Positions 9,850-56,268 of a stretch of DNA of 64,000 nt are shown in pieces. Numbering within the stretch: the first letter of the stretch is position 1; every line of letters starts with the position of its first letter. Origin of the DNA: an uncultured Verrucomicrobiae bacterium (lineage in GTDB: Bacteria; Verrucomicrobiota; Verrucomicrobiia; Chthoniobacterales; UBA10450). Position numbers and translations under genes: made by a program. The notes under the pieces were generated by a model, which had not been told where the DNA came from, searched no databases, and was given only the letters and a program-made list of their open reading frames with translations. The stretch is taken from assembly GCA_963815455.1 (NCBI GenBank), contig CAWFGO010000001.1:1184001-1248000 (forward strand), read 5' to 3'.

Positions 9850-10260
9850 ATGGAAACGACTAGCTCACTCCCGACGCCGCCACCGCTCCCAGCCAGTGGC
9901 CCTCCGACCACCTCCATCACCTCTTCGAGCGTCCGCACCTGGTGCATTCTGTGTCACGCCAGCGCGTTGCTCGGCGTTTTTTTTCATTTCCCCGGGCACC
10001 TGCTCGGACCGTTCATTGTCTGGCTGGCCAAACGTGACGACTCGCCCGAGATCGATGCCCACGGCAAGGAATCGCTCAATTTCCAGATCTCGATGCTTAT
10101 CTACAACGTTGTCGCCGCAGTCTTTTGCCTGGTCCTGATCGGCTTCTTTTTCCTCGCCGTCCTTTGGGTGCTGAACGCGATATTCGTCATCGTCGCCTCC
10201 ATCCAGGCCAGCGATGGAAAATTTTACCGCTACCCGATCACCATTCGCTTTATTCAGTGA
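9850..10260 (+). CDS. DUF4870 domain membrane protein
   Basis: W..LCH.S.L, GPFIVWL, HGKESLNFQIS, YRYP.TIRFI; TATAAT 5 nt upstream of ATG. Confidence 0.92.
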   Translation: METTSSLPTPPPLPASGPPTTSITSSSVRTWCILCHASALLGVFFHFPGHLLGPFIVWLAKRDDSPEIDAHGKESLNFQISMLIYNVVAAVFCLVLIGFFFLAVLWVLNAIFVIVASIQASDGKFYRYPITIRFIQ

Positions 10261-10283
10261 GCTGCGGGGAAAGTAAGGCGGCG

Positions 10284-10586
10284 CATTCTGTCGTTTCCAT
10301 TTCAGCTTGTCAGCTTTTCCGCGTTTCAGAATTTCAACGTGTGACCATCCGGTTCATCCAATAAAGGGATTCTTAACCGCGGATTACGCGGATATCACAG
10401 ATAAAGAAAGGTTCGTGATTCCCATCATCTGCATCCGCGTAATCCGCGGTTGAAATCTTGTCCTTGTCGCAGCCTTGCGCCCATGCCGGCATTCATTCTG
10501 TCGTGTCCCATTTCAGTGTTTCAGCTGTCATCGTGTCAGCTTTTTGGAATTCTCGTTACCCAATGACGATCCGGTTCATCACCTGA
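10284..10586 (+). repeat. Two diverged copies of the DUF4870 3' end with TTTCAGC-like repeats, separated by an inverted repeat
   Basis: VTIRFIQ* at 10341-10364 and RYPMTIRFIT* at 10554-10586; IR AACCGCGGATTACGCGGAT 10375-10393 / 10433-10451. Confidence 0.8.
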
Positions 10587-10802
10587 TCGAACACGGTTTG
10601 GATAACAATTTTCGTCGCTCGATTTCCCTGAATCGTTGCCCGGCTTCCTAGTCACATCAAAGGCTCAGTTCCAATAGAACGCCGTGCCGTCGGCTGCTAC
10701 GCCGGAGATAGGAGCTGGAAGTTCGCAGCCGGCCACCCGTCCGGCCCTATCTTCTAACTCCAATCTCCCTTCCGGGGTTAAATCCTGCCTCTCTGTGTGC
10801 GT

Positions 10803-13800
10803 TCAAGGACTCGCTGGCGGTAATGCTGTGCCCGATCGTGATTTCACGAGCGAGATATCCGTGGCGTTGATTTCGCCGTTGATGGTCACATCGTTCGGGC
10901 AATTCGACTGGCTGAGAATGACACCGGACTGCGATTTCGTCTGACCAATATCTGAGGCGTTAACCAACCCATTCATGGTCGTGTCGCCGACCAGGAATCC
11001 CATCGTTATGTTCGCTGAGGGTAGCACCCCGCCGTTTACCCCGGTGAGATTTGTTCCGGTTACGGTCAGTGTCTGCTGGTCTGCTACTCCAGCGAGGTTC
11101 ACAAGCATGTCGTTGCCGCTGAAGCTCACCGAGCTCACACTTCCCACACCTGACGTAACCATCGCGTTTCCGCTCTGCATCGGCATGTCGAAGTGCAGCA
11201 CCATCGTGTAGTTGCCGCTCCCATTGCGCGGCTCCACTCCGGAGCCGTCCAATGGCATTGGTATGTCAAACGGTCCCGCAGCACCGTGGGTTAAACGCGA
11301 GGCTGCTCCCGTGAACGCCGGCGCTGCCGGTAGCGTCGCGCAGTCGCCAGGTCCCGCGGTGTTATTAATGAAGCCGGAGACCGTGCCACTGAATGGCGAG
11401 GACACTGGCCCTGAGGGCGGCTCCCCGCCCGTCGTATTCACGACCACCACAAAGGTATGTCCCGCGGGAACCGTGAACGAGTAACTGGCATGGTCGACGG
11501 TTGTCCCCAGACCGCTAATACCAGTGTCTCCAAGGTAGTTCGTGTCGAGCATGGTTGGATCGTACACTTGATCGTAGGCGACACTTTCGATGTCACCCGG
11601 ACCGCCGAGTGCGGCGTTGATCGTTACGGTGTAGCAACGAGCCGCGCCGCTCGTGTTAGTGAAGTTGAATGTTTTGTAGTAGTGCGTTCCCGCAAAACCG
11701 CCTCCAGGGCTGGCTTTACCGCCGCAGGGGCTTGGCCGTCCGTCCCGGCCAATACGATCGGCCTGCGTCGCATCACTCGTCATGAGCTGGCTGGGCGGAA
11801 TTTGTTGATCTGGACCGCCGGCACAGGTCGGGATGATGTACTGGATCGTCTTCATCCCGCCCGCGTAAGTCAGGTTGAGTGAAAGCATGATTTCCGTGCC
11901 GCAGACAAACGAGTCCGAGACGGAGATTTTGAACGGCGTCGCGTTCGTGCCGCTCTGGTCAATCGCCATGTCCGGATACGTCGAGCTACCCTGGTCGATC
12001 GTAACTCCAGCAGTCGATGTTGTGAGTGTCGCCTGGATCGCGGTCTCGGGCGCGCAACCGTTGTTCTGGACGCCGAGGTTTAGCTTCACGCATTCGCCCC
12101 GATTGACGATGCCGTTGTTGTTACCTAACGCATCGTCAATCGTAAATCCATTCGCCTCGAGCTTCGATGCGCCGGTCACGGTGAAGTTTTGGGTAACCAT
12201 CCCGCCGCCCGGCGGTGAAACCATGGCGGAGGCCGGCGATGCCGCCGTGCAGTTGCGATTCGCGTCCGCGGCAACGGCCGTATAGGTGCCGGCCGGAACC
12301 AGGATTGTGTACAGGCCGTTTACATCAGCCGCGCCCGCATAGCCATTGCTCAAAGTCACTGTCACCCCGGGAACCGGAGCACTTGTCGCGCTTGAAGTAA
12401 TTGTGCCTTTGACTATCCCCCACAGACCCGCGGCCGAAGCGCAGGATGGGAACTTGAAGCTGGCAATACGGGTCGACCAGTTGAAGCCGCCGTTGGCCTG
12501 CAAGTACTCGTTCGTATAATAGAAAGTGCATTGATCAATCGGATCGAGTGTCATGGCGGTGTAGTCGCCCCATCGGTTGCCAGCGCCTAACTGCGAGCCC
12601 AGGCCGGCTTTCATTTCTGTCTCCGCTCCCATCGTGCCAACCGGATCGTCAGCCAGACGCCCGGTCAGGTAGATGCCCGGTTTTATCGTCGGACTCGATT
12701 TGCTGTAGCCCAGCGCGATGTTGCCGTCTTTGTCCATCGCGGCCGATGGCATCCAACGGTAGCTGGTGTCCGGATCGAAAATGCCGGATTGAAAAAGTGT
12801 CGGTTGAGTCGTCGAGCTTCCCGCATTCCGGAATTCGAACCATTCGACCGCTCCGTGATTCACGTCGCTGCTGTCGCTCGGACCACTGACGACAAGCGAT
12901 TCCTGCGGCAATGCCTGTGTTCCGTTGTTGCGGTAAGCCAGGCGATACATGTAGTGGCCGCCCAAGTTGTCGAGATAGTCCGTCGGCACGGCTGGTGCAG
13001 GCTCGGGCACGCAGTCGCGACCATCATCGGTCGCGCCGCTGAGGCATGGTGCATTGCCGATGCCGCCCATGATGGGAGGGCCGGATGTCACGACCATCGT
13101 GGGAGCCGGGTCCCAGGTCACCGCCACTCGATGCGATGTGGTCAGCTCCGTAAGCGCGAAGTTAGGGCCGAGAAGAAACTCTGCCTCGCCCGCCGCCGGA
13201 GGAGTTAGACTATCGAGGTCGGCGGGCAGAAATCCGAATTCCGCTCCCAAGTCCGAGCTCTGCATCCGGGCCGGAAGACCATGGATCATTTTTTCCCGCT
13301 CGAAAACGTAGATGCGGCCGGTAGTGAACACGAGCCCCGCGCCAAAAACATGCGCGCTCATGTAGTAGCCATCCGGCCACACGCCGGTGTGCGGATAATC
13401 GACGAAGTTAACCGGATCCGTCTGGAAGTCGTAAAGGTAATACTCTCCGGTTGCGTCCGATGTTGCTGAGATGGCGAGGCACTGGTGCGAATAGTCGGTC
13501 TGGCCCGCGGCGACAACGAACTGCGAGAGAATCCAGCGGCCTGCGAGAATGTCGTAAGACACGACCGGGTCGCCGTCGTTATGCGATGCGCAGACGCCGC
13601 CCAGCGCCTGGAACAGCGTATTACCGGCCGCGGGTCCGTACTCAAGGGCCCCGGTGGTTTTGTTGAAGACCGCAAAGCTGGTGTTGTTCCATTGCACGAA
13701 TTGCGTCGAACCGACGCGGCCGTTTACATCCGGGGGATTACCAGAAGGGCTGAACCCACCCAGTCCCACACCGACGCCGTCGAAGTTGAGCCCGGTGGGA

Positions 13801-14246
13801 GTAGGCGCCGAGATCTGCTCTCCCGCCTTCGTTTGAGCATGTCCCCTTGGACCGCCACGCTTGGTCGGCGGTTTGGGCCGCCTCGGTTCCGGGACAGGAT
13901 TTTTCGTAACCGTTGCCGGATTGATCGGCGCGAGGTCGCGCAATTTCGCGCTGCGAACTGCTGCGACCGGGGCCAGAATCTGTGGCGGACCGCTGTATTT
14001 AACCGCGGCCGGCAGCAATGCCTGTGATCGGTCAGCCGGATTCTTGTCCAATTTAATTGCTCCCCTTGCCGCGCCGTAGCCTTGTGCGGAGGCGGGACCG
14101 CCGGCGAAGCGATGGGTCAGTGATTGTATGCCGAGGGGCGCAACCCCAAAGGCGAACAGAGCGAACATGCCTGCGACAAGGCAGAGAACAGACGCGGTAA
14201 GGATCCGCAAGTTGAAGAAAGCGCGGCGAAGATTTCTTGTTTTCAT
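10803..14246 (-). CDS. Large secreted protein (beta-rich N-terminal domain, carboxypeptidase-regulatory-like Ig domain, C-terminal dockerin-like domain)
   Basis: Signal/TM N-terminus, PPDVNG, RWGDY motifs, GDTTMNGLVNASD / DVTINGEINATD dockerin-like repeats. Confidence 0.82.
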   Translation of the reverse strand: MKTRNLRRAFFNLRILTASVLCLVAGMFALFAFGVAPLGIQSLTHRFAGGPASAQGYGAARGAIKLDKNPADRSQALLPAAVKYSGPPQILAPVAAVRSAKLRDLAPINPATVTKNPVPEPRRPKPPTKRGGPRGHAQTKAGEQISAPTPTGLNFDGVGVGLGGFSPSGNPPDVNGRVGSTQFVQWNNTSFAVFNKTTGALEYGPAAGNTLFQALGGVCASHNDGDPVVSYDILAGRWILSQFVVAAGQTDYSHQCLAISATSDATGEYYLYDFQTDPVNFVDYPHTGVWPDGYYMSAHVFGAGLVFTTGRIYVFEREKMIHGLPARMQSSDLGAEFGFLPADLDSLTPPAAGEAEFLLGPNFALTELTTSHRVAVTWDPAPTMVVTSGPPIMGGIGNAPCLSGATDDGRDCVPEPAPAVPTDYLDNLGGHYMYRLAYRNNGTQALPQESLVVSGPSDSSDVNHGAVEWFEFRNAGSSTTQPTLFQSGIFDPDTSYRWMPSAAMDKDGNIALGYSKSSPTIKPGIYLTGRLADDPVGTMGAETEMKAGLGSQLGAGNRWGDYTAMTLDPIDQCTFYYTNEYLQANGGFNWSTRIASFKFPSCASAAGLWGIVKGTITSSATSAPVPGVTVTLSNGYAGAADVNGLYTILVPAGTYTAVAADANRNCTAASPASAMVSPPGGGMVTQNFTVTGASKLEANGFTIDDALGNNNGIVNRGECVKLNLGVQNNGCAPETAIQATLTTSTAGVTIDQGSSTYPDMAIDQSGTNATPFKISVSDSFVCGTEIMLSLNLTYAGGMKTIQYIIPTCAGGPDQQIPPSQLMTSDATQADRIGRDGRPSPCGGKASPGGGFAGTHYYKTFNFTNTSGAARCYTVTINAALGGPGDIESVAYDQVYDPTMLDTNYLGDTGISGLGTTVDHASYSFTVPAGHTFVVVVNTTGGEPPSGPVSSPFSGTVSGFINNTAGPGDCATLPAAPAFTGAASRLTHGAAGPFDIPMPLDGSGVEPRNGSGNYTMVLHFDMPMQSGNAMVTSGVGSVSSVSFSGNDMLVNLAGVADQQTLTVTGTNLTGVNGGVLPSANITMGFLVGDTTMNGLVNASDIGQTKSQSGVILSQSNCPNDVTINGEINATDISLVKSRSGTALPPASP

Positions 14247-14439
14247 GGCGGATTATGTGATTCGTCGAAGGTGATCGTGTTCAAGCCATCGACCGGGCGT
14301 ATCTCGGGCGCATATTTTTTTGGGGCTAGCCGCTGAACCCAGCTTTTGTCTAAATTTCCACGTCCGGGGAGCACAGGCTGCCAGCCTGTTGGTTTCGGCT
14401 GCTAGCCGAAACGATCTTCATAATCTTGATCAACTTCCT

Positions 14440-14464
14440 TGCATCATAAGCGGCTTATGATGCA
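14440..14464. promoter_or_regulatory. Perfect palindrome, putative operator (second copy 14727-14741)
   Basis: TGCATCATAAGC-G-GCTTATGATGCA; core CATAAGC-N-GCTTATG repeated downstream of the small gene. Confidence 0.55.
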
Positions 14465-14523
14465 TCCTTGGCCCGAGGAATAAATTGTAGGGCAGGCGCT
14501 CCGCCCGCCGTCCCTGAGCGAAA

Positions 14524-14712
14524 ATGACAGAGGCACAAAAGAAGATTCACGAGTATCTCGTCGAGATCGGCCGCCGCGGAGGCGAGAACAGCCGGCGCGA
14601 GCTGACCAAATCCCACGCGCGCCAGATGGTCGCGATCCGCGAAATGAAGCGCGCCGCCTTGCGCGAGGGTAAACCCTGGCCACCCCGCGGTCGCAAACTC
14701 CAACTTTCCTAG
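14524..14712 (+). CDS. Small basic protein, possible DNA-binding/antitoxin-like
   Basis: 62 aa, YL.EIGRRGG.SRR motif, Arg/Lys-rich. Confidence 0.65.
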   Translation: MTEAQKKIHEYLVEIGRRGGENSRRELTKSHARQMVAIREMKRAALREGKPWPPRGRKLQLS

Positions 14713-15058
14713 TCAAAATCATCTATCATAAGCCGCTTATGTTGGATGGTTGCAGCCCGTGGTGATTTTCAGATTCGGGCCTTATCGCTCTTCGCCCTTT
14801 CACGCGCTCGCGCGGGCAGGTTTGTGTTCGCCACAGGACGAACTCGCCAGCCTGCCACGTCATCTCGTCACGCCGAAGCCCGTGCCAAGGCGGAAGCTTT
14901 AGCGACGGCGGGTGGCGAGTAGTGGGCCGCTGTCGCTCCAGACGCTTTTAAAGATAAGAGGTCGTTTCTTGACGGAATCGAATTAGGAACGCAGGAAAGC
15001 AGGAAATCGCTTAGCAGGATGTCCTGGGGTGGTACCCGAGGTGCTAGACAGATGAGGG

Positions 15059-15960: not shown

Positions 15961-15994
15961 GAATGGGTGCGCCAGCCGCGAGATTGGGCCGAAT

Positions 15995-16291
15995 CTAATC
16001 TTCGCCACACGGTCTACGATCTGAGCGTTGGTGAAGGGGCGCGAGTATGGTCTTGATGCCTTGTTCGGCGGCGACCTGAAGCGCGCCCTCAAGCGCAAGT
16101 TGAATTTCGCGCGCGGCTTCTTCCCTCGTATCGCCATGTGCCATGATGCCGGGCCATTCGACGACTTGGACGATAAAGCATTCATCGCTTTTTCCGCGGA
16201 ATACCAAATGCGGATTTCGTAGTCGCGAGGGTCGGGTTGCGTCATTTCGTCCGGCGATGAGCTTGTCGAACAGCTTTTCTGTTTTGCCCAT
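15995..16291 (-). pseudogene. hicB: hicAB remnant: about 16-codon hicA-like stub joined to hicB (ATG 16245, one frameshift)
   Basis: YEIRIWYS..DECFIVQVVEWPGIMAHGDTREEAAREIQLAL is HicB-like; MGKTEKLFDKLIAG resembles HicA N-termini. Confidence 0.75.
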
Positions 16292-17082: not shown

Positions 17083-17230
17083 TTGACAGCGCCGAGGTCG
17101 CCGGGCCAAATGGCGGCGGGATGAAATTTATCACACGCCGGTTCGCGGCCGCGCCGGAAGGAACCGCCGTTTATTTTTCATTCAAATTTTCGCGACGCTC
17201 GGGTTCGCTGTTCTTTACTCGACGCTGGTT
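17083..17230 (+). pseudogene. Diverged duplicate of the promoter region and first 36 codons of the POT transporter
   Basis: MKFITRRFAAAPEGTAV-FFIQIFATLGFAVLYSTLV versus MNFLKRRFSAAPEGTAVLFFIQIFATLGFAVLYSTLV. Confidence 0.85.
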
Positions 17231-17434
17231 CGGTTTTCACCAAAACCGAATCGCCGGCTTCCCTAGACCAACTCGCAACGCTCGCGGCCTCCCGCCGTAA
17301 AGTTCGCGCCCTGCGAACCGCTCTGCGCGACGAAGCATTTGCTGGTAGCCGGGAAACTAGTACGTGGCTTCGGGGTGTGGTTGATCCCGCGAAATCTTGA
17401 CTTCCGGGGAGTCGAAGAGCCAAATGTCACTTAG

Positions 17435-18940
17435 ATGAACTTTCTAAAGCGGCGATTTTCAGCTGCGCCAGAAGGGACGGCCGTCCTCTTCTTCATTCAA
17501 ATCTTCGCGACGCTCGGGTTCGCCGTTCTTTATTCGACCCTGGTCCTGTACGCAACGAAGCATCTCCAGCTTCCGGTCAAGCTGGCGACCGCGTTGATGG
17601 GCGTGTTTGGCGCGTTCAATTACGGGCTGCACCTGTTCGGCGGTTACCTGGGCGGGCGGTTTCTTTCGAACCGGAATCTATTTGTCGGCGGCATGGCGTC
17701 GCAGGTGGTGGGATGCGCGTGCATCGCGACCGGCTCGCTCGCGATGTTCTATGTCGGGCTCGCTTTTTTCCTTACCGGCAGCGGCCTGAATGTGACCTGT
17801 ATCAACATGATGCTGACCCAGCGTTTCACCTCGGAGGACCCGCGCCGCGAAGGCGCTTTCCTCTGGAATTACGCCGGGATGAATGTCGGGTTTTTTGTCG
17901 GGTTCGCCGTGGCCGGTTATTTCCAGGGGACGGAGAGTTATGCGAGCCTTTTCATTTTCGCGACGCTCGGCAACTTTGTCGCTATCGTCCTGGCCCTGTT
18001 CAACTGGAAGACGTTGATCGACCGCAATACGCCGCTGCTGGAGGTGACGTCGAACCAGTTCCGGCTGCGGTTGCTGGCCGGCCTAGGCATTCTCATCGGT
18101 GTCGTACCAATCGTGTGGTTCATGCTCCAGCGACCCGGTGGGACCGAGACGATCCTCAAGACGATCTGCGCCGGGGTCGCCCTGACGCTGATCTATCTCA
18201 CGCTGCGTCACCGGGATCGACGCGAGCGGCGGAACATGACGGCGTATCTAATTCTGACTGTCGGCTCGCTGATGTTCTGGTCGTTGTATCAGATGGCCCC
18301 GAGCGGCCTGATGCTGTTCGCGGTCCACAACGTGAACCTCTTCATTGGCAAGGTGCAGATTCAGCCGCAATGGATCCAGAACATCAACACTGTCTGCATC
18401 GTAATCGGCGGACCGATTCTGGCGGCGGCCTTTACCCGCCTGCGCGCGCTCGGGTGGAGGATCGACATCCCGAAGCAGTTTGCCACGTCGCTGATTTTGA
18501 TGGCGCTGGGCTTTCTTATTCTCCCGTTAGGCATCAAACTGGCCGGCATCGACGGCAAGAGCGCGTTCGTGTGGTTGTTCATGAGTTATGTGCTGCAGAG
18601 CGCCGGTGAGTTGCTCATCTCTCCGATCGGCTACGCGATGATCGGCAAGCTCGCGCCGCGGCAATACCAGGGAATAATGATGGGCAGCTGGATGCTCTGG
18701 ACAGGTCTCGCATCACTTTTCGCGGGCGATTTCTCGGGCATGATCCCCGAGCCGACCGGCACCACGGCGCTCGCGACCAACCCTGAATATGTGAAGCTCT
18801 TCGGCGCGCTCGGCGCGGGCAGCCTCGTGGTCGGTATCGCGCTCGTCCTGCTGATTCCGTTCCTGCGCAAGCTGATCACCGACAAGGCGGAGGTGCCTGC
18901 TGTCGAAATGGCGGAGACGACGGTGGTGCCGGGCGTCTGA
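17435..18940 (+). CDS. POT/PTR family oligopeptide:H+ symporter (MFS)
   Basis: Multi-TM MFS; RREGAFLWNYAGMNVG, GELLISPIG, APRQYQG.MMG.W. Confidence 0.9.
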   Translation: MNFLKRRFSAAPEGTAVLFFIQIFATLGFAVLYSTLVLYATKHLQLPVKLATALMGVFGAFNYGLHLFGGYLGGRFLSNRNLFVGGMASQVVGCACIATGSLAMFYVGLAFFLTGSGLNVTCINMMLTQRFTSEDPRREGAFLWNYAGMNVGFFVGFAVAGYFQGTESYASLFIFATLGNFVAIVLALFNWKTLIDRNTPLLEVTSNQFRLRLLAGLGILIGVVPIVWFMLQRPGGTETILKTICAGVALTLIYLTLRHRDRRERRNMTAYLILTVGSLMFWSLYQMAPSGLMLFAVHNVNLFIGKVQIQPQWIQNINTVCIVIGGPILAAAFTRLRALGWRIDIPKQFATSLILMALGFLILPLGIKLAGIDGKSAFVWLFMSYVLQSAGELLISPIGYAMIGKLAPRQYQGIMMGSWMLWTGLASLFAGDFSGMIPEPTGTTALATNPEYVKLFGALGAGSLVVGIALVLLIPFLRKLITDKAEVPAVEMAETTVVPGV

Positions 18941-19154: not shown

Positions 19155-19397
19155 ATGAGGACAACAATTTCGATCGAGGATTCGCTTTTGCAGAAGGCGA
19201 AAAAGATTTCTCATGAACGTCGCTGCTCGCTGCGCGCGGTAATCGAAGACGCACTGCGGGCCGCGTTTGCCAAGGGACGAAAGAGAAGCCGATCCAATGC
19301 GCAGCGGCCGTTGAAGACTTTCAAAGGCTCAGGGACGCAACCCGGGATCGATCTCAGCTCATCATCAGCGCTTCTGGATGCGATGGAGTCGCGATGA
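19155..19397 (+). CDS. vapB: VapB-type antitoxin (RHH)
   Basis: MRTTISIEDSLL..AK....SL..VIEDALR; 4-nt ATGA overlap with the PIN gene. Confidence 0.88.
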   Translation: MRTTISIEDSLLQKAKKISHERRCSLRAVIEDALRAAFAKGRKRSRSNAQRPLKTFKGSGTQPGIDLSSSSALLDAMESR

Positions 19398-19822
19398 TTC
19401 TGCTGGACGTGAATATTCTGGTCGGCGCGCATCGCGAAGATGCGGATCAACACCGGGAAATTCGACCCTGGCTGGAATCGGCTCTTGGCGAACCGGCTGG
19501 CGTGGCAGTTTCGGAACTGGCTTTGAGCGGCTGCCTGCGCATGGTCACGCACCCGAAGATTTTCAAGAAACCGACGCCGCTAGCGCTGGCGCTCGAATTT
19601 CTCGATGATTTTCGTTCACGTGACGAGGTGCACCTTCTCGCGCCCGGACCGGGTCACTGGAAAATTTTCATCGATCTTTGCCGTCGCGGGGATGCGCGCG
19701 GGAACCTTGTCCCCGACGCTTTCCACGCCGCGCTGGCGATAGAACTCGGCTGCGACTGGCTAACTCTCGACCGCGGTTTTGCGCGATTTCCCGGCCTGAA
19801 ATGGCGTCACCCCCTGGATTGA
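19394..19822 (+). CDS. vapC: VapC PIN-domain toxin
   Basis: ILLDVNILV, GNLVPDA.HAALAIE, TLDRGFARF. Confidence 0.93.
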   Translation: MILLDVNILVGAHREDADQHREIRPWLESALGEPAGVAVSELALSGCLRMVTHPKIFKKPTPLALALEFLDDFRSRDEVHLLAPGPGHWKIFIDLCRRGDARGNLVPDAFHAALAIELGCDWLTLDRGFARFPGLKWRHPLD

Positions 19823-23085: not shown

Positions 23086-23205
23086 AGGTGGATCGGCCGC
23101 TCTGCGGGCGATGCCGGAATAATGCGGCCTTGCCGCCACATCTACCATCGCGCTCGGAGATCGTGATCCAGCTGATGAAGGTGCAGCCGCGGGCGCTGGC
23201 GGCGA
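23086..23205. repeat. Composite palindromic repeat of about 120 bp, copy 1
   Basis: AGGTGGATCG...GATCCAGCT followed by a degenerate GTAG REP; near-identical to 26117-26238. Confidence 0.85.
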
Positions 23206-26116: not shown

Positions 26117-26238
26117 AGGTGGATCGGCCGCTCCGCGGGCGATGCCGGAATAATGGGGCCTTGCCGCCACATCTACCATCGCGCCCGGAGATCGCGATCC
26201 ACCTGATGATGTTGTAGCCGCGGGCGCTGACCGCGGCA
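26117..26238. repeat. Composite palindromic repeat of about 120 bp, copy 2
   Basis: Direct repeat of 23086-23205. Confidence 0.85.
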
Positions 26239-28411
26239 TTAGTTCGCCGCTGGTTCGAGACCGCGGCGTTTTAGCAACGGCTCAATATACGGATCGCGCC
26301 CAACGAAATTCTTAAACAAGCCCAGGGCATCAGCCGATCCGCCGCGGGACAAGAGCATCGAGCGGAAGCGGTCGCCGTTCTCGCGCTTGAGGCCGCCGTG
26401 TTCCTTGATCCATTCAACCGTGTCGGCATCGAGCACTTCGCTCCAGATGTAGGAGTAGTAACCAGCCGAATATCCGCCGGCGAATGCGTGCGAGAAATAC
26501 GGACTCCGATAACGGGGCGGGACCGGTGCGAAATCGACCCCGGCCTTGTGCAACGCTTCCGCCTCGAACGCCATCGCGTCCTTGGGAATCTCGGCGGGAC
26601 TCAGTTGGTGCCAGGCCTGATCGAGCAACGCCGCGGCCAGATACTCGCTAGTCGCATAACCCTGATTGAACTTTTCCGAGGCCTCGACTTTGTCCACCAA
26701 CGCCTGCGGAATCGGTTCGCCGGTCTTATAATGTTTGGCGTAATTCTTCAGCACCTCCGGCCAGTTCGCCCACATCTCGTTCACTTGCGACGGATACTCG
26801 ACGAAATCCCGCGGCACGCTGGTCCCGGCGAACCGCGGATATTTCACGTTGGAAAACATTCCGTGCAACGCATGACCGAATTCGTGAAAAGCGGTGCGCA
26901 CTTCATCATGCGTCAGCAACGTCGGCTCGCCTTTCGGCGGTTTCGGGATGTTGAGATGATTCGCCACCACCGGTTTCGTCCCGAACAATCCGCTTTGCGG
27001 GACGTAAGCGTTCATCCAGGCTCCCCCGCGCTTGGAAGGACGCGCGTAATAATCGGCAATGAAAAGCGCCAGCGGTTTGCCATCCGCGTCGAAAACTTCG
27101 AATACGCGGACTTCAGGAAGATAAACCGGGAGATCGTGTCGCTCCTTGAAGGTAAGTCCGTAAAGTTTTCCAGCGGCAAAAAAGACGCCGTCGATCAGGA
27201 CGTGGTTCATTTCGTAATACGGCCGCAGTTCCGATTCATCGAACGTCGTACTTCGCCTTGCGGACTTTCTCGGAATAAAAATTCCAATCCCACGAGGCGA
27301 TTTGAAATCCGCCTTTTTCTTCATCGACAATCTTCTGCATGTCGGCCGCTTCGCGGCGGGCATTGCCGACTGCGGGAGGCGCCAGTTCAGCCAGGAGTTT
27401 GTTTACGGTCGGAACGTCTTTCGCAGTCTGATCCTCGAGTTGATAGGCAGCCCAACTTGCATATCCGAGCAATTTCGCCTTTTCGGCCCGAAGCTGGGCG
27501 GTGTGAATCACAATGTTGCGGGTATCGAACTCGCCGCCTTTGCTATTGCGCGACAACGACGTTTGCATGATGCGTTCGCGCAACGGGCGGTTCTGCAACG
27601 ATCCCAGTAGCGGCTGGCCGGTCGTGTTTTGGAGCTGGATGACGAACTTGCCTTCCTTTTTTTCGTCCTTCGCCGCTGCAATTGTCCCCGCCATCTGGCT
27701 ATCCGATAGCCCGGCCAGATCTTCCTTCTTATCAACCACAACCGACGACGCGTTCTTTTCTTTCAACACATCCTGGGAAAACTGGGTTTGCAGCGTGGCC
27801 AGCTCGGCATTCATTTTCTTAAGCTTTTCCTTGTCCGGATCGGACAACTTGGCGCCGGCCCGCACAAAATCCTTGTAGTAACGCTCGAGCAGATAACTCG
27901 ATTCGGGATCGAGCCCGAGTTTGTCGCGATTGTCATAAACTTCCTGGAGCCGGGCAAAAAGTTTGCTGTTGAGAAAAATCGCATCGTTATGCGCGGAAAG
28001 CTTCGGAGCCATTTCGGCCTCGATCTTCTGCATCGCCGGATTGGTGTTGCACGCGTTCAGGTTCGAGAAGGTTCGTTCCGCCCGGTCGAGCAGCTGCCCC
28101 GTTTTTTCCAGAGCGACGACGGTGTTATCGAACGTGGGCTTTTCCGCGCTGGAGGCGATCCCCTCGACTTCTTTGAGCTGCTCGCGCATCCCGGCTTCCA
28201 TCGCCGGGACGAAATGCTTGTCCTTGATCTTGTCGAACGGCGGGAATTGATACGGCAACGCGCTCTCGGTCATGAGCGGATTGCCGGCAGTCGCGGCGGA
28301 TGAGGAATGTTTCACGGATGCTTTAGGCGCAGCATGAGAAGTAATCGCGATTTGCGTTAGCGCCAGTGCCATGGAGGCGGCGAACAATTTGGAACGGACG
28401 AGGTAATGCAT
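26239..28411 (-). CDS. dcp: M3 family peptidyl-dipeptidase Dcp (frameshift near 27240)
   Basis: PPFDKI, K.GGAWM, FHEFGHALH, DFVEYPSQ, GYSAGYYSY.WSEV. Confidence 0.92.
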
Positions 28412-49422: not shown

Positions 49423-49462
49423 CTTAGGAAACGCCGCGTGAAATCGTCGAGGGACAGTCACT

Positions 49463-49768
49463 GTGGGAGATACTCAGTTCCGGTGGAGTGTGCACCGCCA
49501 ACCGACTTGGGCCACATCGCGTCATGAGCAAATCGGCTTACGTGGGTTAGCGATTCTTGTCGAGCCGGTGGAGGCGAGTCGACGGCAATTGCTCCTGGAG
49601 TTCAGCATTGATCGGTCGCTACACGGTGACATGCCACAGCACCAGCGCTTTCGCATTCCGGACCGTCGTTTGGTCGAGTGTATTGAGAAGGCTGTCGGCG
49701 CAGGCTATGATCCTTCGAGACGTGGAAAACCATTTGTTTATGAGGCCGGACCTCCGTACGAGTTCTAG
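49463..49768 (+). CDS. Cassette 1 hypothetical protein (start uncertain)
   Basis: ORF ends 5 nt before attC1. Confidence 0.7.
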   Translation: MGDTQFRWSVHRQPTWATSRHEQIGLRGLAILVEPVEASRRQLLLEFSIDRSLHGDMPQHQRFRIPDRRLVECIEKAVGAGYDPSRRGKPFVYEAGPPYEF

Positions 49769-49773
49769 CGCAG

Positions 49774-49902
49774 ACCTAACCAGACGATGAAGCTAACGGC
49801 CACTGTCCTGCGTTTTGGTGATGCCTTTCTGGCGGTTACTTTACTTTCACTGCGTTGTGGCCGCTACCCCAGTGGCCGTAGCTTATCTTATTCTCGTTAG
49901 AT
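49774..49902 (+). other. attC: attC site 1
   Basis: ACCTAAC CAGACGATGAAGCTAACGGCCACT...AGTGGCCGTAGCTTATCTTATTCTC GTTAGAT. Confidence 0.92.
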
Positions 49903-49903
49903 C

Positions 49904-50290
49904 ATGAGCAAGCGCGCAACAGAAGATGCCATCCGGAAGGACATCGAAGCGCATCGCCAACGGAACGTTATGCTGGTCCAGCACATCACCAAAAGAGGTG
50001 CCGACACCGCGCGGGAGCGTGACATCGATTGTTTCTTTCACACACGCGGCGAGGATGCCGCCATCACACTGTCGGCATTTTTGCAGTCACGTGGGTTTCG
50101 GGACATTTCCATTGTGGACACCGAGGATGGGGGCGATCACCCGTGGACTGTTCAGGCCGTCCTTACCGGCACAGTAGTCGCCTTTACAGCGGCCGATCGC
50201 ACTGAGGAACTGGTTCGTATCGCAGCAGACCATGACGCACTGTTCGATGGTTGGGGAACACTGCTGGACGAAGTGCCACCGACGATCTAA
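49904..50290 (+). CDS. Cassette 2: RraB-like (ribonuclease E inhibitor domain) protein
   Basis: R.ID.FF, L...GF, C-terminal A..H...FDGWG; stop codon lies within the R'' box. Confidence 0.75.
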   Translation: MSKRATEDAIRKDIEAHRQRNVMLVQHITKRGADTARERDIDCFFHTRGEDAAITLSAFLQSRGFRDISIVDTEDGGDHPWTVQAVLTGTVVAFTAADRTEELVRIAADHDALFDGWGTLLDEVPPTI

Positions 50291-50409
50291 CCAGACGATG
50301 CAGCGAACGGCTTTCCCGGCATGCGTTTACATTTTGCGATGACTAACATACGCTCACTTCAATTCAGCCTCGGTGTCGAAAGCCGTCGCTGATCTTATTC
50401 TCGTTAGGC
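50285..50409 (+). other. attC: attC site 2
   Basis: ATCTAAC CAGACGATGCAGCGAACGGCTTTC...GAAAGCCGTCGCTGATCTTATTCTC GTTAGGC. Confidence 0.92.
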
Positions 50410-50664
50410 GAAGAAGCGAATGACCGTATCGTGACTCACGAATGCACACCGCAATCCGCAGCTGCTGGCAAAAGCCAGTACCTGCTCTCTCCAGCTTCGC
50501 GGGTCCGCTGGATCACACCGAAACCACGTAAAGAAGCCGTCAGTCGTTACCGAGACGCTGCTATAGTCGCTCGCCAGAGATTCGCGTATGCGGTTTCTCA
50601 GCGTTGGGATGCAATCGCTCCACTCATATCCTGTTGTGCTTCTGTTCATATCTTGTGTAAGCAT
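50404..50664 (-). CDS. Cassette 3 reverse-oriented small hypothetical protein
   Basis: ORF whose TAA stop falls in the core site; fills the 5' part of cassette 3. Confidence 0.45.
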   Translation of the reverse strand: MLTQDMNRSTTGYEWSDCIPTLRNRIRESLASDYSSVSVTTDGFFTWFRCDPADPRSWREQVLAFASSCGLRCAFVSHDTVIRFFA

Positions 50665-50670
50665 CTCGGC

Positions 50671-51252
50671 TTGCTTGCGCGTTCGGCTCTCGATTGCAAG
50701 ATCCTTTTTGTTGTTTTTTTCGCGATTTCCGCCACTGCAGCAAACACATTGATAGCGGGCGAGCCTTACACTGTGCCGAGCAGCGCCCTTACGGACGCAG
50801 CTCGGCAAAATCTCGTCGGTGGCTTCACATACCACCTTCCGCCCGGTTGGTCGCAGAAGAATCTTCCCGGTGCACAGTTCAAGGCAGCATTCGGACGCGA
50901 GGAAGACGGCAATCCCGGAAACATTAGTTTTCAGGTTGCCGCTTTCAGCGGCAGCCTTGGCGAGTTTCAGGCCACGATGTTAAAAGAGATGCCGTCGGTT
51001 TTCTCCAAGATGGGCATTTCGGATTCCCGAGTCGTAAATCAATCGGCATTCGAAACATCCTCAAAGCTGGTTGGCTTGCAGGCAGTCGTCGAGGCTGAGC
51101 GCCTCGACGGGAAGACTGCGCGACAGCTCCTCTATTTCTTCGAGCGGAAGGACGGTCAAAAGATTCTCGTAACTTGCTCGGTCGTGGACGAGGGCACGCG
51201 ATACGATGCGATCTTTGATGCGATCATGAAGACATTCGAGGTCACAAAGTGA
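50671..51252 (+). CDS. Cassette 3 secreted protein (PsbP/Mog1-like); start uncertain
   Basis: Signal-like LFVVFFAISATAA, GFTYHLPPGW, FDAIMKTF. Confidence 0.7.
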   Translation: MLARSALDCKILFVVFFAISATAANTLIAGEPYTVPSSALTDAARQNLVGGFTYHLPPGWSQKNLPGAQFKAAFGREEDGNPGNISFQVAAFSGSLGEFQATMLKEMPSVFSKMGISDSRVVNQSAFETSSKLVGLQAVVEAERLDGKTARQLLYFFERKDGQKILVTCSVVDEGTRYDAIFDAIMKTFEVTK

Positions 51253-51265
51253 TTGCCACCCATTC

Positions 51266-51388
51266 GCCTAACCAGACGATGGAGCTAACGGCCACCCGGC
51301 GTATGTTTACCTTTCTCGTGACTTTAACACTATTGCTTCGATCATCGCTCGCTCTCGGTGGCCGTAGCTCATCTTGTTCTCGTTAGAT
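51266..51388 (+). other. attC: attC site 3
   Basis: GCCTAAC CAGACGATGGAGCTAACGGCCACC...GGTGGCCGTAGCTCATCTTGTTCTC GTTAGAT. Confidence 0.92.
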
Positions 51389-51410
51389 GTAATGCAAACT
51401 GTTCGGCGGT

Positions 51411-51794
51411 ATGGAATCCTTCCTTCACTTCGTCATGACATTTGCCGGAGCACTCGCTGCCGCAATCGGGATTTTGCTCGGTGCGATTCTGATTTTTCTC
51501 CTCGTCGTTTGGATCAGCGATAAGATGCCGAGCGCGAACAAGCGTATCCGCAATCAAGCGCTCGGCGGCATTGGCTTGGTGCTATTCGGCTTTCTCATGC
51601 TTTGGAACGCGCGATGGGCACTGTTGCACCATACCATCTTGTTTCGACGCTACCCCTCGTGGGGAAGGTCTGCATGGATGAATCCGTGGCAGGCGATTGC
51701 CGTCGCTGCCATTTGCTTCATCCTCGGAGCGGTCCTCGTGATAGATGCCGTGCGCAAGAAAAGAGAACCAGATGCAAATTTCTCGGCAAATTGA
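51411..51794 (+). CDS. Cassette 4 membrane protein (3 TM)
   Basis: Three hydrophobic helices; ends 9 nt before attC4. Confidence 0.75.
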   Translation: MESFLHFVMTFAGALAAAIGILLGAILIFLLVVWISDKMPSANKRIRNQALGGIGLVLFGFLMLWNARWALLHHTILFRRYPSWGRSAWMNPWQAIAVAAICFILGAVLVIDAVRKKREPDANFSAN

Positions 51795-51803
51795 ACGTCT
51801 CGC

Positions 51804-51927
51804 ATCTAACCAATCGCTCGAGCCAACCGCTGGCCGTCGCGATGTCCACATTTGATTTCATGAAACAGTTCTCGATGTTTGCCATGCTCGCTCTCGCCAG
51901 CGGTGCCTGAGCTCATTCTCGTTAGAC
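51804..51927 (+). other. attC: attC site 4
   Basis: ATCTAAC CAATCGCTCGAGCCAACCGCTGGC...GCCAGCGGTGCCTGAGCTCATTCTC GTTAGAC. Confidence 0.88.
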
Positions 51928-51997
51928 CTGTTGGATTGCTCTGCGCGATGAGAAGGCGAAGTGAAAAAGCGCGAATCTTGCGCGAGCGAGCGAAGCC

Positions 51998-52741
51998 ATG
52001 AACGACGTTCCCGATGAAAAGCCGGTGGCAGCTACCTCAGGCGTGGCCCGCCAGCGGCGCGGTCTTGATTGGTCCCAGGCGCTAGTTGAGCTCGCTACGG
52101 TCGTCATCGGCATCTTAATCGCATTAGCGGCGAACAACTGGGCGGAGGGGCGACATAACGCTGCGCTGGAAGCTCGTTATCTGGAGCGACTCCTCGCGGA
52201 CAGCACGGAGAATCTTACCATGCTTCAGGAGAGGATTGATCTGCTGACGCGCCGGACCGACGAACTGACTCGCTTGAGCGGCTGGCTGACAGGCGGAACA
52301 GAGCGTCCCATAGATGCGGAAATTTCGGACGTTCTCTGCCGCTGGTTTATCCAACCAGCCTTACGCCTGCGCCGCGAGACCTACGCCGAACTGGTGAGCA
52401 CGGGTAACCTCTCTCTGCTGCGCGACGTGCCACTGCGCGCACTGCTTGAGCAAGCGGAAACCAGACACGAAGAATTGCTCAGGCTCGATCGCTTTACCGA
52501 TATTCTTCAGCGAGAGACGGAGCCATTGAATCGATATCGCCAGTGGAAAATCGATCCGGGTGCTGGCCCGAAGGTCGGCTGCCGTTTTGATCTCAATGCT
52601 ATGCGCTCTGACCCGGTCATCCCCTCGATCCTCGCCCAGATCTGTCGTGACGAGACTATAAACCGCTCGTTCTGTGAGCAGGAATTGGTCGCAGTCCGCG
52701 CCGTGCGCGACCGTATAACAAGAATGCAATCGCCGCGATGA
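51998..52741 (+). CDS. Cassette 5: DUF6090-like protein (N-terminal TM plus helical domain)
   Basis: E...VVIGILIALAANNW.E.R....E..YL..L..D; Y.ELVSTG.L.LL. Confidence 0.75.
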   Translation: MNDVPDEKPVAATSGVARQRRGLDWSQALVELATVVIGILIALAANNWAEGRHNAALEARYLERLLADSTENLTMLQERIDLLTRRTDELTRLSGWLTGGTERPIDAEISDVLCRWFIQPALRLRRETYAELVSTGNLSLLRDVPLRALLEQAETRHEELLRLDRFTDILQRETEPLNRYRQWKIDPGAGPKVGCRFDLNAMRSDPVIPSILAQICRDETINRSFCEQELVAVRAVRDRITRMQSPR

Positions 52742-52803
52742 GACTGCTTGCCGAAGTGACAATGGCAGAGCGGGGCGGCCACATTCTGACCAAACACGAA
52801 AAG

Positions 52804-52926
52804 GCCTAACCAGACGGTGGAGCGAACAGCGACCGGCCTTTTCTCCACGCGCAGAGTAGATACAATGTCTTCCATGTTCTCCACCCTCGCTCTCGGTCGC
52901 CGCCGCTCACCTTGGTCTCGTTAGAT
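52804..52926 (+). other. attC: attC site 5
   Basis: GCCTAAC CAGACGGTGGAGCGAACAGCGACCG...CGGTCGCCGCCGCTCACCTTGGTCTC GTTAGAT. Confidence 0.9.
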
Positions 52927-53383
52927 GAATCGGTTGCGTCTTGTCGCGTTGATAATTCTGTGCGTCACGGCCTCGTTCCGTGCGCAGGGCACTGGCTACT
53001 ACACTGCGGGGAGCCACATGACTAGCGCTGTCGACGCCAAGGGTGTCCGGCACGATGGGCACTCCTATAAAGGCGCTCCGCCTTGGCTCGCAGATCGCAC
53101 CTCAGGACCGTCACCAGATTACCCCATTCGCGAGCGCGCATTGCACCATCAAGGCCGAGTCATCGTTCGCCTCACCCTCGATCTTAAGACTGGCCGTGTT
53201 ATCAAGACCTCTTTGCTGAAGTCCTCGGGCTACCCCGAACTTGATCGCTGCGCGATTGCCGCTTTTAGCCGCTGGACGTGGCGTCCGGGCCGTTGGAAGG
53301 AGATAGACATGCCTACGAGATTTGAGATGGCCGATCCGTCTCAGCCGCCAGTCCCAGGGGCGACCCGGTTGCCGCACTCATGA
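52925..53383 (+). CDS. Cassette 6: TonB C-terminal domain protein, secreted
   Basis: PDYP...R..H.QG.V.V....D..G.V....L.KSSG..ELD..A..A...W.W.P; ATG overlaps the core site. Confidence 0.85.
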   Translation: MNRLRLVALIILCVTASFRAQGTGYYTAGSHMTSAVDAKGVRHDGHSYKGAPPWLADRTSGPSPDYPIRERALHHQGRVIVRLTLDLKTGRVIKTSLLKSSGYPELDRCAIAAFSRWTWRPGRWKEIDMPTRFEMADPSQPPVPGATRLPHS

Positions 53384-53386
53384 TTC

Positions 53387-53396
53387 ATCTAACCAT
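53387..53396 (+). other. attC: Truncated attC site 6 (R'' box only)
   Basis: ATCTAACCA directly after the cassette 6 gene, complementary to GTTAGAT at 52920; no matching right arm. Confidence 0.6.
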
Positions 53397-53613
53397 ACAT
53401 CTGAGGTGGTCCGTCAAACATTTGGATTGAAGTTATTGGTAGGATTTTCAGGCGGCTTTAGGGAGTTGTTGATCGGCCATGAATAACTGCTGGATGACCA
53501 ATAATGCGATGCATTCGTTTTGATGAAGTGTTCCCCTAATTGTTCGCGAGCGAGAATCTCTTTTCGCGAGATCCTTCGCCGTCTACGCGGCTCAGGATGA
53601 CAAGGCCACGCTA

Positions 53614-54375
53614 TTAATGCTGCGCAGCTTTGACAATTTGCGCGAAGCTGCGCGGGTCGAGGCTGGCGCCGCCGACCAGGGCGCCGTCGATATCCGGTTG
53701 CGACATGAGCTCGCGCGCGTTTTCCGGTTTCACACTGCCGCCATATTGAATGCGGACGCGGTCGGCCGTCGTCTGATCGGAGAGTTCGAGAAGCGTGTGC
53801 CGAATAAAAGCGTGCGCCTCCTGCGCTTGCGCGGGAGTGGCGTTGCGGCCAGTGCCTATGGCCCAGACTGGTTCGTAGGCCACGATTGTTTCTTGTAACT
53901 CTTTGGCATCGAGACCGGCCAGGCTCCCGCGTAATTGGATCGACAATATCTTTTCCACGTTGCCGTGATCGCGTTGATCGAGCGTTTCGCCGACGCAAAC
54001 AATCGGACGCAGACTTGCTTCGTGCGCGGCGCGCACTTTGCGATTTACAATTTCATCGGTTTCGCCAAACAAGGCGCGCCGTTCGCTGTGGCCGAGCACG
54101 ACGTAGCGCACGAATAAATCGCGCAACATCGCCGACGAGATCTCGCCCGTGAACGCGCCGTTGCGCTCCCAATGCATGTTTTGCGCGCCGACCTTGATGT
54201 TCTGCGCGTCGCCCAGGGCTTCGTTCACTTTTGCAATCGCGGTGAACGGCGGAATGATCACGATTTCGGCATCCGCCGCGTCGCCGATTTCGAGTAGAAA
54301 GGTTTGGACGAACCGCGCAGCCTCGGCCTGCGTCATGTTCATCTTCCAATTCGCGGCAATAATTTTCTTACGCAT
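53614..54375 (-). CDS. tpiA: Triosephosphate isomerase
   Basis: ANWKMN, GHSERR, AYEPVWAIGTG, YGGSV, LVGGASL. Confidence 0.98.
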   Translation of the reverse strand: MRKKIIAANWKMNMTQAEAARFVQTFLLEIGDAADAEIVIIPPFTAIAKVNEALGDAQNIKVGAQNMHWERNGAFTGEISSAMLRDLFVRYVVLGHSERRALFGETDEIVNRKVRAAHEASLRPIVCVGETLDQRDHGNVEKILSIQLRGSLAGLDAKELQETIVAYEPVWAIGTGRNATPAQAQEAHAFIRHTLLELSDQTTADRVRIQYGGSVKPENARELMSQPDIDGALVGGASLDPRSFAQIVKAAQH

Positions 54376-54389
54376 AATGAGCCGACGCG

Positions 54390-54584
54390 CGAGATCCCTC
54401 GCTACGCTCGGGATGACGGGAAGGGCTGGCGACGATTTTCTTTCTCATATCACGTGATCGTCAGCCCGAGCCCCGAACGCTTTCGGGGTTGAGGGATCCC
54501 GTGGCAAAAGGTACCGGTAACGCATCGGGATCCTTCGACTTCGCTCAGGATGACGGGGAAAGCGGGCGCGATTTTCTTTCTCAT
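54390..54584. repeat. Two CGTC-type elements, each preceded on the minus strand by a duplicated tpiA start
   Basis: ATGAGAAAGAAAATC at 54584 and 54448 (minus strand). Confidence 0.8.
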
Positions 54585-55790
54585 TTGTCAGTCAACGCGG
54601 CGACGCCCGGCAGTTCCTTGCCCTCGATTAATTCCAGCGATGCGCCGCCGCCGGTTGATATGAACGTCATTTTATCCGCGAGGCCGGCCTGTTTCACCGC
54701 GGTCACGGAATCGCCGCCGCCGATGATCGTGGTGGCGCCCGATTGGGCGAGGGCTTCGGCGATGGCAATTGTTCCTTCGGCGAACTCCGGGATCTCGAAT
54801 ACACCCAGCGGCCCGTTCCACAAAATCGTTTCGGCCTTGGCAATCTCCTCCTGGTAAAGCGCGATCGTGGCCGCGCCGATATCGACCGCGTGCCACCCAT
54901 CGCGAATGCCGTGCTCCTGGGAAAGCCGGCTCGTGTTCTCCATCGAAGCGCCGGCCTGGACTGCCTCCGCCTCCACAACATCGACCGGCAACAAAAAATT
55001 CACGCCGCGCTTTTTGGCAAGATCGACAATCTCATGCGCGAGATTGACCTTGTCGGACTCGACCCGGCTGGCGCCAATCGGGATTCCCTGCGCTTTGAAA
55101 AAAGTGTTAGCCATGGCGCCGCCGATCAGAATCGTGTCGGCCTTTTCCATGAGCGCTTTGAGCACGCCGATTTTATCGGAAACTTTCGAGCCGCCCATGA
55201 TCACGAGAAACGGCTTGGCCGGTTTGGCCAGTTCTTCGCGCAAATACTTCAGCTCCTTCTCCATCAACAGACCCATCGCCGATTGTTTCACGAACTTGGT
55301 GATTCCAGCAGTCGAGGCATGGGCGCGATGGGCCGCGCCGAAAGCATCGTTAACATAAAGGTCGCCGAGCTTGGCCAGCGCTTCGGCAAATTTCGGATCG
55401 TTCGCTTCTTCCTCGGGTTGGAACCGGACGTTTTCGAGCAACGCGACGTCCCCGTCGTGCATGGAATCGATGATGGTTTTCGGCACATTGCCGATCGTGT
55501 CGTGACTGAAAATGACCGGATGATGGATGAGCGAATGCAAATGATCGCCCACTGGCCGCAGTGAATATTTTTCCACCGGTTTTCCCTTGGGCCGGCCGAA
55601 GTGGGCCATCAAAATCGTCTTCGCCTTATGCTCGCGCAGATAATTGATGGTGGGAAGGCTCTCGCGAATCCGGGTGTCATCGGTGATACGAAATTTCCCG
55701 CCATGGGTATCGGTCGGCACATTAAAATCGACCCGGACGAGGACGCGCTTCCCCCGGACGTCAAGATCGCGAACGGTGAGCTTAGCTCAT
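54581..55790 (-). CDS. pgk: Phosphoglycerate kinase (1-nt indel just after the start)
   Basis: KLTVRDLDVRGKRVLVRVDFNVP upstream of the ORF-track start; LLENVRF, NDAFG, GGGDS, STGGGASL. Confidence 0.97.
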
Positions 55791-55791
55791 A

Positions 55792-55830
55792 TTACTCGTG
55801 CTCGTAATCGTAATCGTGCTCGTAATCGAT
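55792..55830. repeat. GATTAC/GAGCAC hexamer array at the gene 3' end, encodes DYEHDYDYEHE
   Basis: Inverted relative to 56235-56268. Confidence 0.85.
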
Positions 55831-56220
55831 CCCTGCTTGTTCTCCTTCCCGCACTCGTCCAGCGCGATCGGAAAATCGGCGCAACAATCCGACAAGCATC
55901 TCAACGATGCGAACCAGCTGCTCCTTCCGTTCGTTGGCAATCTTTTGCTTGGCGAGTTTTCGCGCCACCAAGACATCGAGACGCGCCGCGCATTCGACTG
56001 CCGAGCCACGCGCGATTTCGAAGAACCGGGAACGATCGGCCGCAGAAAATTTGCCGTTCCCCTCGGCGATATTCAGCGGCACGCTGGTCGAGGCCCGGTC
56101 GAGCTGGTCTTTCGCGGCCGCCTTCTCGGTGATTGTTTTCAAAAAGTCACCCACCCATCCACAGAAGTCGATCGCTTGGACGTAAACGTCCAGTTTCTCG
56201 TGATCAAAGTGGATTTTCAT
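55792..56220 (-). CDS. Four-helix bundle protein (23S rRNA IVP/Avd-like, TIGR02436)
   Basis: HEKLDVY, DQLDRAS.SV.LNIAEG.G, F..IARGS..E. Confidence 0.93.
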   Translation of the reverse strand: MKIHFDHEKLDVYVQAIDFCGWVGDFLKTITEKAAAKDQLDRASTSVPLNIAEGNGKFSAADRSRFFEIARGSAVECAARLDVLVARKLAKQKIANERKEQLVRIVEMLVGLLRRFSDRAGRVREGEQAGIDYEHDYDYEHE

Positions 56221-56234
56221 GGGCTAATGAAAAC

Positions 56235-56268
56235 CGATTACGATTACGAGCACGAGCACGATTACGAA
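56235..56268. repeat. GATTAC/GAGCAC hexamer array upstream of the gene
   Basis: CGATTACGATTACGAGCACGAGCACGATTACGAA. Confidence 0.85.

Follow-up and report, generated by a model that had tools for sequence, protein, structure and literature searches.

Synonymously recoded gene-end remnants at housekeeping genes of a soil Chthoniobacterales bacterium

The window analyzed here, a 64,000-nt stretch of contig CAWFGO010000001.1, carries three loci at which the end of a gene is present more than once: the 3' end of a DUF4870 gene (three times), the 5' end of a POT-family symporter gene (twice) and the 5' end of tpiA (three times), all of them where a first-pass annotation of the sequence had put them. 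The source genome (G000; 3.62 Mb in 7 contigs, 90% complete) belongs to the Chthoniobacterales (a Udaeobacter-related family) of the soil Verrucomicrobiota. Stranded gene ends of this kind occur in excess throughout the genome and also in its relatives, with dozens of genes affected in all, and the copies differ from the functional ends mainly at synonymous sites. The first-pass annotation proposed for them, as a hypothesis, an undescribed insertion system that replaces gene termini. On present evidence a known host recombination route explains the scars best, rather than a new enzyme or insertion system; here it would have acted at many housekeeping genes of this family.

Gene ends doubled in the window

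The functional end of the DUF4870 gene is followed by two stranded copies (Table 1), the second of which differs from it by 7.5 synonymous and 3.5 non-synonymous changes. Over 98 nt, the segment 10483-10580 shares 90% identity with a spacer-plus-remnant unit in G079, a genome of another genus, whose DUF4870 gene is 91% identical to that of the window. The last 30 nt of the functional gene are also nearest to G079, with 2 differences against a median of 7 across relatives.

The stranded POT start covers 38 codons with one 1-nt gap, and shows 18 synonymous and 7 non-synonymous differences. Stranded and functional starts differ at 18 of 96 nt, a distance like that between alleles of separate genera: the starts in 29 other genomes mostly lie 13-25 nt away. 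Part of the DNA between the copies (17232-17322) is 90% identical over 94 nt to non-coding DNA upstream of POT in G034, and 96% identical over 46 nt to G062; the G034 POT gene itself is 85% identical, against 90% for its upstream DNA. Since the insert is single-copy in G000 and matches a POT flank in G034, it is taken to be the gene's own flank from another lineage and not a dispersed repeat. Only three to five letters are shared at the joint. Upstream of POT in three relatives (L149, L163, L166) promoter-like segments are stacked with no coding remnants, apparently a product of the same process.

Both stranded tpiA starts (MRKKI) sit 10-12 nt ahead of a GTCATCC hairpin repeat, and the tpiA remnants of G010, G014 and L279 likewise abut a GTCATCC-type repeat. 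Among 105 tpiA loci with enough flank, the start pattern is present at 5 of the 75 with at least 75% protein identity (one of the five, L311, repeats the sequence of L029 and was counted once; another, L349, was taken as likely chance) and at none of the 30 below 75%. Hairpins also lie at the pgk-tpiA junction of relatives, with no remnant beside them.

The first-pass annotation had placed all these duplications next to repeats, toxin-antitoxin remnants or a four-helix-bundle unit. Two details of this do not stand: the toxin-antitoxin remnants near POT (15995-16291 and 19155-19822) lie outside the span of the two POT copies, and the four-helix-bundle unit between gap and pgk (55792-56220) has inverted short-repeat flanks and no duplicated gap or pgk terminus; it is not a terminal-duplication scar. 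G000 has 16 four-helix-bundle genes over the profile cut-off.

Table 1. Features at the three loci with doubled gene ends, and in the gap-pgk interval
Feature	Position in window	Strand	Remarks
DUF4870 gene	9850..10260	+	PF09685, E 1.6e-37; functional 3' end 10228-10260 (RYPITIRFIQ-stop)
Inserted spacer with short TTTCAG-type repeats	10261..10343	+	no significant hairpin (z 0.32); start common to G079
Stranded DUF4870 3' end, copy 1 (TIRFIQ-stop)	10344..10364	+	last 7 codons, stop included; 6 synonymous, 0 non-synonymous differences
Long hairpin repeat	10375..10451	.	z -7.5; about 9 related places in the genome (blastn)
Second spacer and stranded DUF4870 3' end, copy 2	10483..10586	+	copy is 10554-10586 (RYPMTIRFIT-stop), 11 codons
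Stranded POT 5' end with its own TTGACA promoter-like box	17083..17233	+	copy is 17121-17233, ATG at 17121
DNA between the POT copies	17232..17434	+	single copy in G000; second promoter-like box at 17397
POT-family oligopeptide:H+ symporter, functional copy	17435..18940	+	PF00854; TIGR00924 over cut-off
tpiA, functional copy	53614..54375	-	PF00121
Partial GTCATCC hairpin repeat, resembling the Ssn-related motif	54388..54417	-	follows stranded copy 2
Stranded tpiA 5' end, copy 2 (MRKKIVA)	54428..54448	-	start at 54448
Two-armed GTCATCC hairpin element	54460..54554	-	folding weakly above shuffles, z -1.7
Stranded tpiA 5' end, copy 1 (MRKKIA)	54567..54584	-	ATG overlaps pgk stop codon
Four-helix-bundle gene between gap and pgk	55790..56268	-	gene 55792-56220; PF05635, TIGR02436

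Genome-wide excess, divergence and recurrence of stranded ends

G000 was scanned with gene calls made in this analysis (2,993 genes). For 3' ends, stop-anchored gene ends were compared with non-coding DNA up to 1.5 kb downstream at a score of at least 12, with five shuffles; for 5' ends, ATG-anchored gene starts were compared with non-coding DNA, again with a shuffle control. Stop-anchored 3' copies were found at 21 of the 2,993 genes against 0.0 in the shuffles, and ATG-anchored 5' copies numbered 6 against 0.2. An unanchored 3' scan gave 26 matches downstream versus 7 upstream, 10 in reverse complement and 1 in shuffled sequence. Unanchored alignment of 5' ends showed no direction (29 upstream versus 25 downstream at a score of 15) because repeats are miscalled as gene starts, and it was therefore dropped in favor of the ATG-anchored scan; a tblastn search for long remnants, in which paralogs dominate the matches, was also set aside. 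The short DUF4870 and tpiA copies fall singly below the score cut-off, and their support comes from their doubling in the window and their recurrence in relatives.

Targets include nuoK (whose remnant abuts nuoL), rplK, rpsG, a FabG-like reductase, a flavoprotein, an aldehyde dehydrogenase, nupC and a 2-oxoacid dehydrogenase E2. Remnants are 15 to 204 nt long across loci; those in the window are 18-113 nt long and 67-80% identical. The DNA that separates the copies holds toxin-antitoxin pairs (HigB, PemK, PIN/Phd, DUF4258/DUF2283, DUF2442), a PD-(D/E)XK gene, hairpins, unrelated small genes or plain upstream DNA; no restriction-modification family was found among the 15 cargo open reading frames scanned. 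Compared with the full lengths expected of such genes, a few cargos seem to be truncated where they face the remnant, namely at nupC, where a 74-aa antitoxin with no Pfam match follows higB, and at C5:179577, where an 11-codon gene start is left. The same parA-like start with a 5' remnant occurs with small differences on two contigs (C7:20251 and C1:410163), and contig C7 may be a strain variant. Among the tRNA and tmRNA genes, which are the most conserved of possible anchors, 13 of 50 have end fragments within 1.5 kb, a count that has no shuffle control.

Synonymous changes were counted in 16 of 22 3' pairs; the six left out were an attC, a tandem paralog, three identical or near-identical tandem duplications and one unverified pair. 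Over 816 nt, the 16 curated pairs show 100 synonymous and 59 non-synonymous differences (pooled dS 0.83, dN 0.10), and third positions hold 105 of the 159. The predominance of synonymous differences on which the first-pass annotation built is thus genome-wide. Its corollary, that the copies were not identical at birth and that one terminus came from another allele, was put against a null model in which a duplication starts identical, the dead copy changes freely and the live copy changes only at synonymous sites. In 4 sets of 1,000 runs the mean synonymous count under this model was 57-68, and no run exceeded 87, against 100 observed. Identical duplication followed by decay is accordingly rejected, and the excess above the null indicates that both copies evolved as working alleles until recently. 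A similar balance (61.5 synonymous versus 29.5 non-synonymous over 630 nt) is seen in ten remnants from relatives. The nuoK copies differ at 9 of 45 nt (7-19 to relatives) and the rplK copies at 3 of 45 (1-11 to relatives).

Relatives were compared at the best 30 loci per gene, G000 included. Remnants are present at 6 of these loci for DUF4870, 5 for POT, 4 for tpiA (among them that of the unpublished genome G003), 2 for nuoK and 4 for rplK. These kin are not independent of one another, and at least one unit (10483-10580) is common to G000 and G079. The junctions are hypervariable in relatives and most inserts have no remnant. Neither copy was consistently nearer to any relative in a test of direction.

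The nuoK-nuoL junction illustrates this variability. In G000 a PD-(D/E)XK gene (PF13366) lies there between inverted repeats (L043, C1:134355-134902). Similar inserts of about 500 nt, with no remnant, are found in 5 of 29 relatives (loci listed: L060, L066, L070, L074, L086, L067), and G001 has an empty inverted repeat which, with the PF13366 insert, makes a pair like a miniature inverted-repeat transposable element.

A small outgroup sample was scanned as well. In G042, of another family, 800 kb held 4 matches, which fall at 3 loci and are for the most part near-identical; 400 kb each of G123, from the same family, and of G211 and G214, from the same class, gave none. At the G000 rate about 2.8 would be expected per 400 kb, so that this sample is underpowered. 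Five sequencing runs screened for the strain itself matched at most 0.16 of its words. Contigs from four sequencing runs belong to other species; in some of these pgk leads straight into tpiA, or gap into the gene beside it, with no insert.

Probable one-sided recombination and the rival explanations

We think it rather likely that the doubled gene ends are scars of one-sided, homology-facilitated illegitimate recombination (HFIR) with DNA from related species, probably taken up by natural transformation. In this respect our best reading coincides with the 'one-sided homology plus illegitimate junction' of the first-pass annotation; its 'undescribed', however, is overstated, since one-sided integration, long target duplication and 3'-end displacement are all in print. 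In published accounts HFIR combines one homologous anchor with one illegitimate joint and uses no dedicated enzyme (PMC5361080, PMC6382021, PMC2884548); it is known in transformable Acinetobacter, Streptococcus and Pseudomonas and has been named for accessory genes with one recombining flank (PMC12359135).

A donor fragment consisting of a conserved gene and its neighboring DNA would pair inside the resident gene at one end, presumably anchored by RecA. Its other end, which has no homology, would be joined illegitimately within the terminal part of the resident gene, possibly by Ku, which is present. The gene would so gain a donor terminus and donor flank, and the resident terminus would be stranded next to its former neighbor, as with the remnants that abut nuoL and overlap the pgk stop. 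Where this happened more than once, remnants would pile up, and DUF4870 and tpiA are read as such cases. The hairpins, along with the toxin-antitoxin pairs and nuclease genes, would likely be passengers that profit from the one-sided route, and finished units of cargo plus remnant would likely spread onward by ordinary two-sided recombination. That scars lie near gene ends is probably because a longer donor piece recombines on both sides and leaves no scar, and because joints that disrupt a required gene do not persist.

What is observed agrees with HFIR in several respects. A homologous border with an insert of donor flank is seen at two of the three window loci, POT (G034) and DUF4870 (G079), and none of the tyrosine recombinase matches of the genome lies at these loci. 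The synonymous excess, the between-genus distances of the POT and nuoK copies, the cargos that seem truncated, the end fragments at tRNA and tmRNA genes and the presence of one gene each for ComEC, DprA and Ku also speak for it. The same junction cargos occur without a remnant in relatives, as would be so if recombination were usually two-sided and only exceptionally left a scar; this has also been argued for type VI secretion system (T6SS) arrays (PMC5361080). At T6SS effector, Rhs and contact-dependent inhibition loci an incoming module anchors on the conserved part, the old 3' part is displaced downstream and events stack (PMC5361080). At those loci a toxin tip under diversifying selection is what gets displaced, whereas here the replacement encodes the same peptide and the gain is cargo. 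Unlike described HFIR, moreover, the present scars are in natural genomes, at many housekeeping genes, with donors from other genera and the resident terminus kept.

Several points weigh against HFIR. In laboratory work it is reported mainly to remove recipient DNA, with no duplicate left behind. Competence genes are no proof of transformation; ComEC was matched in 10 of 14 control genomes as well. MutS is present too. The family member G123 has no scars in 400 kb against about 2.8 expected at the G000 rate, an underpowered comparison. No insert-free strain of the same species was available, the genus holding one other genome, which leaves direction and junction microhomology tentative. Some pairs are identical or near-identical, and plain target duplication explains these equally well. 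In published work, Bacillus transformation drops steeply past about 15% divergence, near the divergence here, and laboratory HFIR is called rare (PMC5361080).

Long target duplication of variable length, identical at birth and with the working copy later swapped for another species' allele, is in our estimate a rather unlikely source of the scars as a whole. Furuta et al. 2010 (PMC2853133) describe such duplications for restriction-modification genes, mostly in competent species, with no mobility gene and with repeats above 30 bp whose length varies and which frequently cover a start or stop codon. The pairs at C1:1098793, rpsG, L101 and L136 are identical or nearly so, and the synonymous test is compatible with later allele replacement. 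The published repeats, however, are mostly highly identical (44/46 to 47/47, lowest 368/393), whereas most pairs here are 75-90% identical and synonymously recoded, and the cargo here is arbitrary. Two events would be needed per locus, and a donor gene's own flank as the insert is left unexplained.

The hairpin repeats raise the question of whether nucleases set the position of the joint. Copies of the repeat GTCATYCYGAGCG number 264 in G000 and 70 in G034, and each of the other 79 genomes of the phylum searched has 0-3. None of the 264 matches the published Ssn-related motif exactly; 20 do so at no more than one mismatch and 147 at no more than two, the latter against 0.06% of random places. 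As with the SRM/NTS hairpins of the Ssn system, GTCAT-tagged hairpins occur in hundreds with small GIY-YIG genes among them: at 2 of the 8 small GIY-YIG loci (C3:443690 and C2:522238) repeats flank the gene on both sides. A search of NCBIfam with the small GIY-YIG proteins gave no match. Five other small GIY-YIG genes of G000 (C1:532651, C3:553128, C1:174056, C3:491045 and C5:75712) lie in 23S rRNA-like sequence, between duplicated tRNA halves or just after the tmRNA. A tandem array of 147-nt hairpin elements occupies C3:208676-209235.

During transformation SsnA is reported to cut single-stranded DNA a short way upstream of its hairpin, at a distance of a few nt (PMC11893778). By analogy, Ssn-like GIY-YIG nucleases might cut incoming single-stranded DNA 5' of the GTCAT hairpin, the free end then being joined to a gene end; we consider this distinctly unlikely. 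A fuller form, in which Ssn-like nucleases cut transforming DNA by hairpins and Ku end-joining links the cut end to the displaced resident strand, we also regard as unlikely. Scars are modestly enriched at the main hairpin repeat: of the 161 gene 3' ends adjoining it 4 are scarred, and of the remaining 2,245 there are 17 with a scar (odds ratio 3.3, p 0.047); for gene starts the counts are 1 of 105 adjoining and 5 of 2,451 elsewhere (p 0.22). The tpiA remnants that abut repeats in other genomes point the same way. Against this, 17 of the 21 3' scars have no main-family repeat beside the gene end, so that a minority of scars touch Ssn-like repeats. The gap between repeat and remnant varies (4, 4, 7, 16, 10 and 12 nt), the motif is never matched exactly, and the DUF4870 and POT loci are beyond the reach of the explanation. 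Neisseria SsnA, moreover, lowers transformation and integration, and the role reported for it is restriction of transforming DNA, not repeat insertion or gene-end duplication (PMC11893778). The dedicated system of repeat-bounded mini-cargos proposed by the first-pass annotation is not supported, on similar grounds: most scars lack the repeat, cargos are mixed, and none of the 16 four-helix genes is spanned by a duplicated pair.

Integrase islands such as e14 at E. coli icd, which bring a replacement terminus and displace a fragment, have the same geometry, and G000 has 8 tyrosine recombinase matches (PF00589). All 8 lie away from the window and from the 16 curated pairs. That the scars are shrunken relics of such islands is improbable: more than 20 unrelated protein-coding genes are targets, both gene ends are used, cargos are 0.1-1.3 kb and no integrase adjoins. 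Integrase islands may nevertheless lie behind some of the common tRNA end fragments. Sixteen Y1 transposase-like matches in G000 are not tied to scars.

Merging of strain haplotypes in a long-read metagenome assembly is very improbable as the source. The assembly does contain apparent single-base frameshifts in gap (56616-56618), the pgk start (55790), an M3 peptidase (27236-27363) and a deiminase (58656-58839), which are probably assembly errors, so that single gaps should not be over-read, and no read set of this strain was found. Independent assemblies, some of them fragmented, nevertheless have remnants at these very genes, and one unit is common to G079 at 90% identity.

RNA-templated copying in the manner of a diversity-generating retroelement, which the first-pass annotation had entertained and for which the four-helix proteins, presumably Avd-like, might speak, is hardly credible, since G000 (at 90% completeness) has no RVT_1 match, adenine bias is absent (A at 34 remnant and 30 functional positions of 159 differences), no four-helix gene lies between copies and a promoter-like box is stranded along with the POT start.

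Other features of the window and significance

A search of the window against Rfam gave no match. Five attC-like sites form an array with small cassette genes at 49761-52927, with no integrase in the window; the array has 49 related places in the genome, and one array adjoins a tyrosine recombinase at C1:1495298. A 119-nt repeat is present at 23086-23204 and 26117-26235 (92% identical, about 50 related genome places), and a diverged pair (71%) of one short gene fragment at 5450-5709 and 9179-9437.

Nothing on recoded terminal remnants at housekeeping genes on a genome-wide scale turned up in a literature search, which is weak evidence of absence, subscription papers lying mostly outside the search. 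If HFIR is indeed their source, the scars are a countable natural record of one-sided recombination, a process known mainly from the laboratory and thought rare, and a scan for recoded terminal copies could chart it across prokaryotes. Toxin-antitoxin islets have been ascribed to two-sided recombination (PMC13617665); the one-sided route offers those without mobility genes a way into chromosomes, a gap named in the same source. Were the Ssn/Ku explanation true, hairpins and small selfish genes would have a host-encoded, integrase-free entry into essential operons, one that works between genera and exchanges the gene end in the process. For the family itself, an abundant and uncultured soil lineage, the scars hint at an exchange of gene ends and intergenic DNA between what GTDB ranks as genera.

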